Source: Caldimicrobium thiodismutans
GTDB taxonomy: Bacteria > Desulfobacterota > Thermodesulfobacteria > Thermodesulfobacteriales > Thermodesulfobacteriaceae
Assembly (NCBI RefSeq): GCF_001548275.1
Contig: NZ_AP014945.1
Location: 1,110,001 to 1,142,000 of the forward strand
Length of the DNA stretch: 32,000 nucleotides
Direction: 5' to 3'
In this document: in pieces, positions 29,808 through 30,547 of the stretch
Layout: every line of letters starts with the position of its first letter
How positions within the stretch are numbered: position 1 is the first letter of the stretch
Notes under the pieces: model-generated
Database searches by the model: none
Told to the model about the DNA's origin: nothing
The model's input: only the letters and a program-made list of their open reading frames with translations
Program-made: the position numbers and the translations under genes

Positions 29808-30547
29808 AAGTGAGGACTTGCCCATGTCCGGCTCATATCGGGGGAGCCCTCCTACCTGAGGTTTATATGCTTCAGGTGTGGGGTAATCCCGAGGGAAGCT
29901 TGTCTCTCGTGAGGGAGGCAAAGCCCCGTAACGACTGACCCGAAAGGGGAGGCACGCCTCTATTATTTAAAATTTTGAGGTGTGCAAAACGCCGGCCACC
30001 ACCCGTAACTCCAAACTGGGGTTACGCAGAAAGGCCTATGGAGGCCCTCTTATGTTAAATCCTTGGTATGTAACAGGACTTTGTGAGGGAGAAGCCTCTT
30101 TTAGTGTAAGTTTTAATTTAAGAAATAAGTTAAATGTTGGTATAGAGACCAAGCCTTCCTTTTCCATAACCTTAAATCGAAGAGATTTAGAGCTTATAAA
30201 AGAAATTTATAAGTTTTTTGGTTGTGGAGGGATAAGGTATTCAAGGCCTGATAGATGTTATAAATATGAGGTTAGGTCTGTTAATGACCTTGTAGAAAAA
30301 ATTATTCCGCATTTTGAGGAGTATCCTTTACAAGGAGCTAAAAAAAGGGATTTTGAGCTATTTAAAAAAATATGTCTTATGGTAAGAGCGAATTTACATC
30401 TTTCTTTTAAGTATTTACCTGAAATTATTGATTTTGCTTATCAAATGAATGAGAGTGGTAGAAGAAGGTATACTAAGGAGGATCTCCTAAGGGTTCTTGG
30501 TGGTGTGAAGGGATAGTCTACCCCTTGCCGAAAGGCTTGAGAGGGTG
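29808..30547 (+). mobile_element. group I intron in 23S rRNA (E. coli U1951-equivalent site) carrying a homing endonuclease ORF
   Basis: Exon colinearity breaks after ...TTGTCGGGT (29807) and resumes at AAGTTCCGACC (30548). The 5' exon ends in U and the insert ends in G. A P1 helix forms between 29804-29810 and 29817-29823, with a U-G wobble at the splice site. The structured arms are GC-rich with GNRA loops, and the embedded ORF is AT-rich. Confidence 0.85.
30052..30516 (+). CDS. LAGLIDADG homing endonuclease, single-motif (homodimer-type)
   Basis: MLNPWYVTGLCEGEASFSVSF contains one LAGLIDADG-type motif, followed by a typical endonuclease core (FGCGGIRY...KYEVRSVNDL...IIPHFEEYPL). GGAGG lies 6 nt upstream of the ATG at 30052. 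The track ORF's GTG at 29980 lies in GC-rich structured RNA. Confidence 0.9.
   Translation: MLNPWYVTGLCEGEASFSVSFNLRNKLNVGIETKPSFSITLNRRDLELIKEIYKFFGCGGIRYSRPDRCYKYEVRSVNDLVEKIIPHFEEYPLQGAKKRDFELFKKICLMVRANLHLSFKYLPEIIDFAYQMNESGRRRYTKEDLLRVLGGVKG

Follow-up and report, generated by a model that had tools for sequence, protein, structure and literature searches.

The stretch of Caldimicrobium thiodismutans DNA analysed here, 32,000 nucleotides long and referred to below as the window (contig NZ_AP014945.1, positions 1,110,001 to 1,142,000), carries a 23S rRNA gene at 27743-31505 whose 3763 nt exceed the 2925 positions of the bacterial large-subunit (LSU) model. The gene is interrupted at 29808..30547 by a 740-nt insert, placed after the equivalent of Escherichia coli 23S U1951 in helix 71 of domain IV, and the insert in turn holds an open reading frame (ORF) at 30052..30516 for a 154-aa protein with a single LAGLIDADG motif. 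The insert, its structural elements and its ORF all lie on the + strand. We interpret this insert, with a probability of roughly 90%, as a mobile group I intron belonging to the L1951 lineage, an IA-type variant with helices P7.1 and P7.2 that has lost P2. Elements of this kind, L1951 group I introns that carry a LAGLIDADG gene, are already known, and this further example accounts for both the over-long 23S gene and the "endonuclease" coding sequence annotated within it. Its host is a cultured thermophile of the Thermodesulfobacteriota, which we take to be a hot-spring sulfur disproportionator growing at about 75 °C.

The position of the insert can be fixed to the nucleotide. The LSU model is colinear with the 23S gene and leaves a single large gap of 741 nt, between ...GUCGGGUAAG and UCCGACC; because an AAGU repeat at the junctions allows the boundary to slide, this gap corresponds to the 740-nt insert at 29808-30547 that had been claimed in the original prediction. 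Over its final 58 nt the 5′ exon matches E. coli 23S rRNA without a difference, and the last of these bases is position 1951 of the gene in a RefSeq E. coli chromosome, so that direct numbering upholds the predicted placement after U1951. Joining the exons restores GUCGGGUAAGUUCCGAC of helix 71; as DNA, the joined junction reads GTCGGGT then AAGTTCCGACC, and the intron-less 23S site is CCTTGTCGGGTAAGTTCCGACCTG. The prediction had left the boundary open to a shift within the 4-nt AAGT repeat and had selected its junctions by the rule that a group I intron follows U and ends in G. Relatives whose introns start with G permit no sliding, as at locus L007 (GGGU/GAGC...AAGUG/AAGUUCC, with slashes at the junctions), and they therefore settle the junctions at 29807/29808 and 30547/30548, where the rule had put them.

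The secondary structure was tested in an alignment (A2) of 76 introns from this same site, with 500 shuffles and with partner strands slid by one to three columns as controls. Standard pairs fill 87.0% of 5867 cells, against 73.4% in the shuffled alignments and 33-46% in the slid ones, the slid control being somewhat favourable to the model because the structure string was derived from the window sequence. Counts of double changes are independent of the origin of that string, and changes on both sides are found in 67 of the 87 pairs; none of the 500 shuffles matches the observed value on any of five measures. P3, P4, P5, P6, P8 and P9.0 all covary, and the order of elements, P3-P4-P5-P4′-P6-P7-(P7.1, P7.2)-P3′-P8-P7′-P9.0/P9, is canonical, with P3 and P7 crossing. 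When the window intron is stripped of its ORF and folded without constraints by minimum free energy (MFE), 80 of the 82 nested pairs in the model are recovered at 37 °C and again at 60 °C, and 69 at 75 °C, where the model has an energy of -31.6 kcal/mol.

At the 5′ end, P1 joins the exon sequence GGGU and the intron sequence AAG (29804-29810) to the guide CUUGCCC (29817-29823), placing a U29807.G29820 wobble at the splice site. The wobble is present in 76 of 76 sequences, 97% of P1 cells are paired, and four sequences compensate an exon G-to-A change with a C-to-U change in the guide. The 5′ part of the internal guide, GGACUU (29814-29819), pairs as P10 with AAGUUC of the 3′ exon (30548-30553); here 88% of cells are paired compared with 5-64% when the partners are slid, and covariation is impossible because the exon is invariant. 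The last intron base, G30547, has its counterpart in all 75 related introns, which end in G (omega G). The alignment thus bears out what the original prediction had drawn from the window alone, namely the U before the insert and the G at its end, P1 with its wobble, the P10-like pairing with the 3′ exon, and two helices with GNRA loops, which proved to be those capped by L6 (GUGA, 29909-12) and L7.1 (GAAA, 29942-45).

The core is formed by P3, P4-P6, P7 and P8. P3 pairs CCGGC (29828-29832) with GCCGG (29991-29995), is 100% paired in the 76 sequences and shows double changes in three of its five pairs (CG/UA in 7, GC/AU in 19 and GC/AU in 5); its 3′ strand crosses P7 to give the P3/P7 pseudoknot. 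P4 (29838-43 / 29887-92) encloses P5/P5a (29846-61 / 29870-84), switches between UA and AU in 11 sequences and among GC, AU and UA in 18, and is among the helices recovered by MFE folding. An early hand model with P3 as GUGGGG and P4 as CGAGGG was dropped, since covariation in the alignment identifies CCGGC/GCCGG as P3 and UCGGGG/UCCCGA as P4. P6/P6a (29893-29927) comprises a GGG/CCC helix, an AA bulge and an 11-bp extension beneath its GNRA loop; 89.5% of its cells are paired and 11 of its 13 pairs have double changes. The 5′ strand of P7, A-[C bulge]-GACUG (29931-29937), lies in an R-like element, GUAACGACUGA, and its bases 29931 and 29933-37 pair with the 3′ strand UAGUCU (30514-19), an S-like element. 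P7 is 100% paired in the alignment, with one AU-to-GC compensation, in L021, at the A-U pair that flanks the invariant G29933-C30518 pair and the bulged C29932. This geometry is that of the canonical guanosine site, and G29933-C30518 is presumed, by analogy, to be the guanosine-binding pair, a role known for such a P7 pair from the Tetrahymena ribozyme.

Between P7 and the 3′ strand of P3 stand P7.1 and P7.2, peripheral helices that are a hallmark of subgroup IA. P7.1 (CCC-GAAA-GGG, 29939-48) is 94% paired with two of three pairs covarying, and P7.2 (29952-60 / 29977-85), which closes an AU-rich 16-nt loop, has double changes in nine of nine pairs. P8 pairs CACCACC (29997-30003) with GGUGGUG (30499-505), and the loop that it closes opens with a P8a hairpin (30004-12 / 30018-26) and contains the ORF. 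Double changes occur in all seven P8 pairs, even though one of the strands is coding, and the nearest copies compensate as CCACGACC/GGUCGUG. J8/7 (30506-13) leads to the 3′ strand of P7, beyond which P9.0, ACCC (30520-23) with GGGU (30543-46), encloses a P9 hairpin with a GAAA loop (30524-39); all four P9.0 pairs covary, for example as ACC/GGU, GCG/CGC and ACAC/GUGU.

The ORF appears to encode a homing endonuclease. Its product matches Pfam LAGLIDADG_1 (PF00961) at 87.1 bits, against a cut-off of 23.1, as one domain over residues 8-108 (E = 1.7e-24), and it is identical to the NCBI entry "endonuclease [Caldimicrobium thiodismutans]". It matches each half of double-motif structures of the I-OnuI family in the PDB (E = 3e-39) and also single-motif PDB proteins of about 170 aa, and the acidic residue of its motif (VTGLCEGEA, E14) is invariant in 28 homologues. 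Third codon positions dominate the differences from the closest homologues (77 third-position differences from L082, against 29 and 19 at the other two), and the intact ORF is therefore under purifying selection. Its G+C content is 33%, compared with 55-58% in the non-coding arms and 59% in the exons. The last six codons also encode the 3′ strand of P8, J8/7 and the 3′ strand of P7, with the UAG stop inside P7; a similar overlap of ORF and core is known from cyanobacterial rRNA introns (Haugen et al. 2007). Within the overlap, the window has GGUGGUG (Gly-Gly-Val) where the family consensus is GGUGAGG (Gly-Glu-Val), and this change tracks the 5′ strand of P8, CCACCACC.

The start of the gene differs from that in CPR (candidate phyla radiation) and Aquificaceae copies. 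A Shine-Dalgarno sequence, GGAGG (30040..30044), lies 7 nt upstream of the start codon within the conserved motif CUAUGGAG (30036-43), and part of it falls in a local hairpin predicted by MFE folding, GGCCU (30033-37) with AGGCC (30042-46). The AUG of this motif is the in-frame start in these CPR and Aquificaceae copies, the CPR start being a conserved AUGGAG; in the window the GGAGG of the motif serves instead as Shine-Dalgarno for the AUG at 30052. The AUG of the motif in the window also opens a mini-ORF of six codons (AUG GAG GCC CUC UUA UGU UAA) that overlaps the AUG at 30052.

The endonuclease led to a large family of introns. A protein search returned 449 homologues at E <= 1e-5, with identities of 62-100% among the 120 matches listed, and when one genome per bacterial species was scanned, relatives proved to be encoded in 245 species-representative genomes. 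In 75 of the best 80 loci from these 245 genomes the endonuclease gene sits in an insert of 699-789 nt at exactly the same 23S site, which establishes the homology of the window insert with introns found there. The best 80 loci span many phyla, mostly outside the CPR and the classic intron-bearing bacteria, and include Aquificaceae, Hydrogenobacter, Thermocrinis, Omnitrophota, Anaerolineae, Thermoflexus and Armatimonadota, together with Bipolaricaulota, Gammaproteobacteria (including Thiomargarita), Trueperaceae, Margulisiibacteriota and several CPR lineages. Neither C. thiodismutans itself nor Coxiella is represented among these loci. The statement in the original prediction that rRNA introns are rare in bacteria is accordingly outdated for this lineage. 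P2 is missing from the window, from Aquificaceae copies L001, L003, L004 and L006 and from the closest metagenomic copies, L082-L085, whose endonucleases are 76-80% identical to that of the window; a P2 hairpin is present in all other relatives. Because the loss is common to the closest copies, we read it as a lineage trait and not as decay. The distribution points to a thermophile subclade spanning phyla, for which horizontal transfer would be the simplest account.

The same alignment bears on two further observations. The intron at L037, on Ca. Thiomargarita nelsonii contig JSZA02000021.1, aligns with members of the L1951 family, and on the strength of this alignment it can be placed in that group I lineage. 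In addition, a number of relatives have in their P7.2 loop 6-9 nt that complement the Shine-Dalgarno region of their own endonuclease gene, as seen when columns 227-256 of alignment A2 are compared with columns 339-392. The match occurs in L002, L005, L008, L012, L015, L028-L031, L034, L047, L052, L053, L055, L056, L058 and L068, and the two segments co-vary, as CCUCC/GGAGG, CUCUCC/GGAGAG, CCCACC/GGUGGG and ACCCC/GGGGU. Matches of at least 6 nt are found in 40% of own pairs, compared with 7% in each of two controls, shuffled loops and cross pairs. In the window, a search for this pairing gave only an AU-only 6-mer, which is probably due to chance. In the relatives the pairing has the appearance of a folded ribozyme sequestering the ribosome-binding site, or else of a tertiary contact between L7.2 and L8; we know of no description of either kind of pairing between the P7.2 loop and a ribosome-binding site.

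Several observations weigh against a functional group I intron at this locus. RF00028, the Rfam group I model, scores the window at only 12.4 bits (E = 2.6, gathering score 50) and only over 30304-30540; an Rfam scan of the whole window at gathering score returned rRNAs and tRNAs but no intron; and the relatives tested with RF00028 all fall below its gathering score, the best reaching 41.7 bits. The window lacks P2, a helix often involved in tertiary contacts. Its P9, GGCUUGAG, is not the perfect helix seen in its nearest relatives (GGCAAGAA in L004 and L084), having GGCUUG where these have GGCAAG, and two U-U oppositions relative to them. The conserved upstream AUG, the ancestral start codon, is out of frame, 14 nt upstream of the present start. 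Lastly, a report cited in the CPR survey (2024 J Bacteriol survey) describes the L1931 intron of Simkania negevensis, a bacterial 23S intron of the same region, as "unspliced" in its title. These points could be accommodated by a degenerate, splicing-defective group I intron that either stays in mature 23S rRNA, as that title suggests for Simkania, or is tolerated by means of an intron-less rrn operon. We hold this to be improbable. The columns that are invariant across the 76 introns, comprising the R and S elements, P7, J8/7 and the P4 core, are by definition kept in the window; all helices pair in the window copy, and MFE folding recovers the model, in which P9 undergoes a register shift with a UU bulge and is not lost. 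P2 is shared in its absence by L001, L003, L004, L006 and L082-L085, the ORF has stayed intact under purifying selection, and a cultured organism would be unlikely to tolerate a 740-nt insert in helix 71, part of an intersubunit-bridge region.

The low RF00028 score is in our view a limit of the classifier. A fit to a group I core model, which the original prediction had named as a test, was not obtained with the window alone but was obtained with a homologue: RF00028 aligns to L057 end to end (model positions 1-253) at 41.7 bits (E = 4.1e-9), assigning P1, P2, P3, P4-P6 and P9, the elements AACGACU and AUAGUCU, and a P8 whose loop accommodates the ORF, and through this relative the 5′ strand of P7 in the window aligns to AAGACUA of the model. 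L002 scores 22 bits (E = 0.003). The authors who described the Thiomargarita 23S introns, of which L037 is one, found no Rfam match for them, and only 45% of the 23S inserts in CPR genomes were classified as group I (2024 J Bacteriol survey). Because introns of both sets escape the model and the structural features of a group I intron are present in the window, a sub-threshold score carries little weight; RF00028 is evidently insensitive to this lineage, and the window would be another instance of a genuine intron missed by the Rfam group I model.

Two further explanations would remove the insert from group I altogether. Fragmenting intervening sequences (IVSs) are common in bacterial 23S genes, and the insert might be one that RNase III or another host nuclease cuts out with no ligation, leaving a fragmented 23S rRNA and a LAGLIDADG gene that is mere cargo. 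This is very improbable. Known IVS sites lie elsewhere, as in helix 45 of Coxiella, whereas the window site is in helix 71, and the CPR survey describes known IVSs as short inserts. The ends of the window insert lack a long terminal stem and instead take part in P1, P10 and P9.0, with the invariant U.G wobble and terminal G, and an internal pseudoknotted core that covaries is not needed for an RNase III substrate. We give still less credence to an intron of another class that happens to host a LAGLIDADG gene, whether group II or of the archaeal bulge-helix-bulge type. LAGLIDADG genes do occur in archaeal rRNA introns, and one of the PDB matches of the endonuclease, 3e54, presumably an archaeal protein, is named "rRNA intron-encoded endonuclease". 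The junctions of the insert, however, sit in P1 and P10 and not in a bulge-helix-bulge. Group II introns of CPR 16S genes also carry LAGLIDADG genes, but none was reported in CPR 23S genes (2024 J Bacteriol survey), and no group II family in Rfam matched at gathering score or, over 29750-30620, up to E = 10. Against either class, the structure that covariation backs is that of group I.

On the reading of the insert as a mobile L1951-type group I intron, we infer from the sequence that the RNA is catalytic, that it splices in vivo, and that the protein has endonuclease or maturase activity with a cleavage site at the intron-less 23S sequence. The transcript would fold into a P1-P9 ribozyme, in which exogenous guanosine docks at G29933-C30518 in P7 and attacks the phosphate after U29807, marked by the U.G wobble of P1. 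G30547, placed by P9.0, would then take over the guanosine site while P10 aligns the 3′ exon, and with the attack of the freed 3′-OH of U29807 on the junction after G30547 the exons would be joined and helix 71 re-formed (GUCGGGU-AAGUUCCGAC). For homing, a LAGLIDADG protein of the I-CreI homodimer type would cut intron-less 23S alleles at GTCGGGTAAGTTCCGAC, and repair would copy the intron in; this candidate target is pseudo-palindromic, which suits a homodimer. The 154-aa protein may additionally stabilise the ribozyme at about 75 °C as a maturase, in the manner of the Thermotoga 23S intron protein.

A broader scenario joins these features, and we advance it tentatively, as one that may well not hold in full. 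The window intron would belong to a thermophile-specific, P2-less subclade of L1951 introns that spreads by horizontal transfer among the hot-spring phyla Aquificota and Thermodesulfobacteriota, and at about 75 °C it would need the encoded LAGLIDADG protein as a maturase in order to splice. The lineage as a whole, with its endonuclease relatives spread over so many species, would be a pan-bacterial mobile element, and in many of its members pairing of the P7.2 loop with the ribosome-binding site of the endonuclease would couple folding to translation. Our understanding of how group I introns function is unchanged by the window intron. What it offers is a host: L1951 introns now have among their hosts a cultured thermophile of the Thermodesulfobacteriota with growth presumably near 75 °C, and C. 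thiodismutans could serve as a tractable system for studying a group I ribozyme together with its homing endonuclease and possible maturase at high temperature.

The rrn operon is complete at the window end by Rfam scan, with a 16S rRNA gene at 25816-27387, two tRNA genes in the 16S-23S spacer (27476-27551 and 27588-27660) and a 5S rRNA gene at 31565-31681. Domain I of the 23S gene has two short extra segments relative to the bacterial LSU model (28021-28037 and 28069-28094), which are probably lineage-specific helix extensions.

Among the papers searched, none ties Caldimicrobium to such an intron. Of the described systems, the nearest relative of the window element is Cbu.L1951 of Coxiella burnetii. 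The two introns of this bacterium, which are reported to self-splice, have been assigned to subgroups IB2 and IA3 according to a citing paper, and the one at LSU position L1951 has 720 nt and encodes a 157-aa single-motif LAGLIDADG protein (Haugen et al. 2007, Table 1). By description, the window intron is alike in site, nearly alike in size (740 versus 720 nt, and 154 versus 157 aa), and alike in its single-motif LAGLIDADG protein, so that the precedent cited in the original prediction was apt. We take the L1951 intron to be the IA3 one of the Coxiella pair, an assignment that P7.1 and P7.2 of the window fit. The differences lie in the host, here a thermophile of the Thermodesulfobacteriota, in the absence of P2 from the window copy, and in the second intron of Coxiella at L1917, which the window 23S gene lacks, the single large gap in the LSU model being that of the L1951 insert. 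In CPR/Patescibacteria, LAGLIDADG_1 inserts are found at 23S position 1952 (site 23IS8), and I-ShaI has been characterised at the neighbouring site 23IS7 (2024 J Bacteriol survey). The 23IS8 inserts share the site and the protein family with the window intron, and CPR copies L054, L063, L069, L072 and L080 align over the whole core; unlike the P2-less, GC-rich clade of the window, the CPR copies are AT-rich, have P2 and start at AUGGAG.

The L1931 introns of Thermotoga resemble the window intron in having a thermophile host, a site in domain IV (20 nt upstream of that of the window), a single-motif LAGLIDADG protein and a length of about 700 nt. They are IC1-like and also lack P2 (Haugen et al. 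2007), whereas the window intron has IA-type P7.1 and P7.2 helices, and the two differ in site and in the clades of intron and endonuclease. The Thermotoga neapolitana 23S intron protein is reportedly maturase-like, stabilising and activating its intron at high temperature, and it is a plausible functional analogue of the window endonuclease. The L1931 intron of Simkania negevensis is likewise of group I, lies in a bacterial 23S gene and encodes a single-motif LAGLIDADG protein; its site differs from that of the window. At four bacterial rDNA intron sites, L1951 included, each clade mixes bacterial sequences with organellar ones from green-algal chloroplasts and from mitochondria (Haugen et al. 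2007), in keeping with the organellar precedents that the original prediction had also invoked. The L1951 lineage extends far more widely in Bacteria than the customary list of Coxiella, Thermotoga, Simkania and a few cyanobacteria would lead one to expect.

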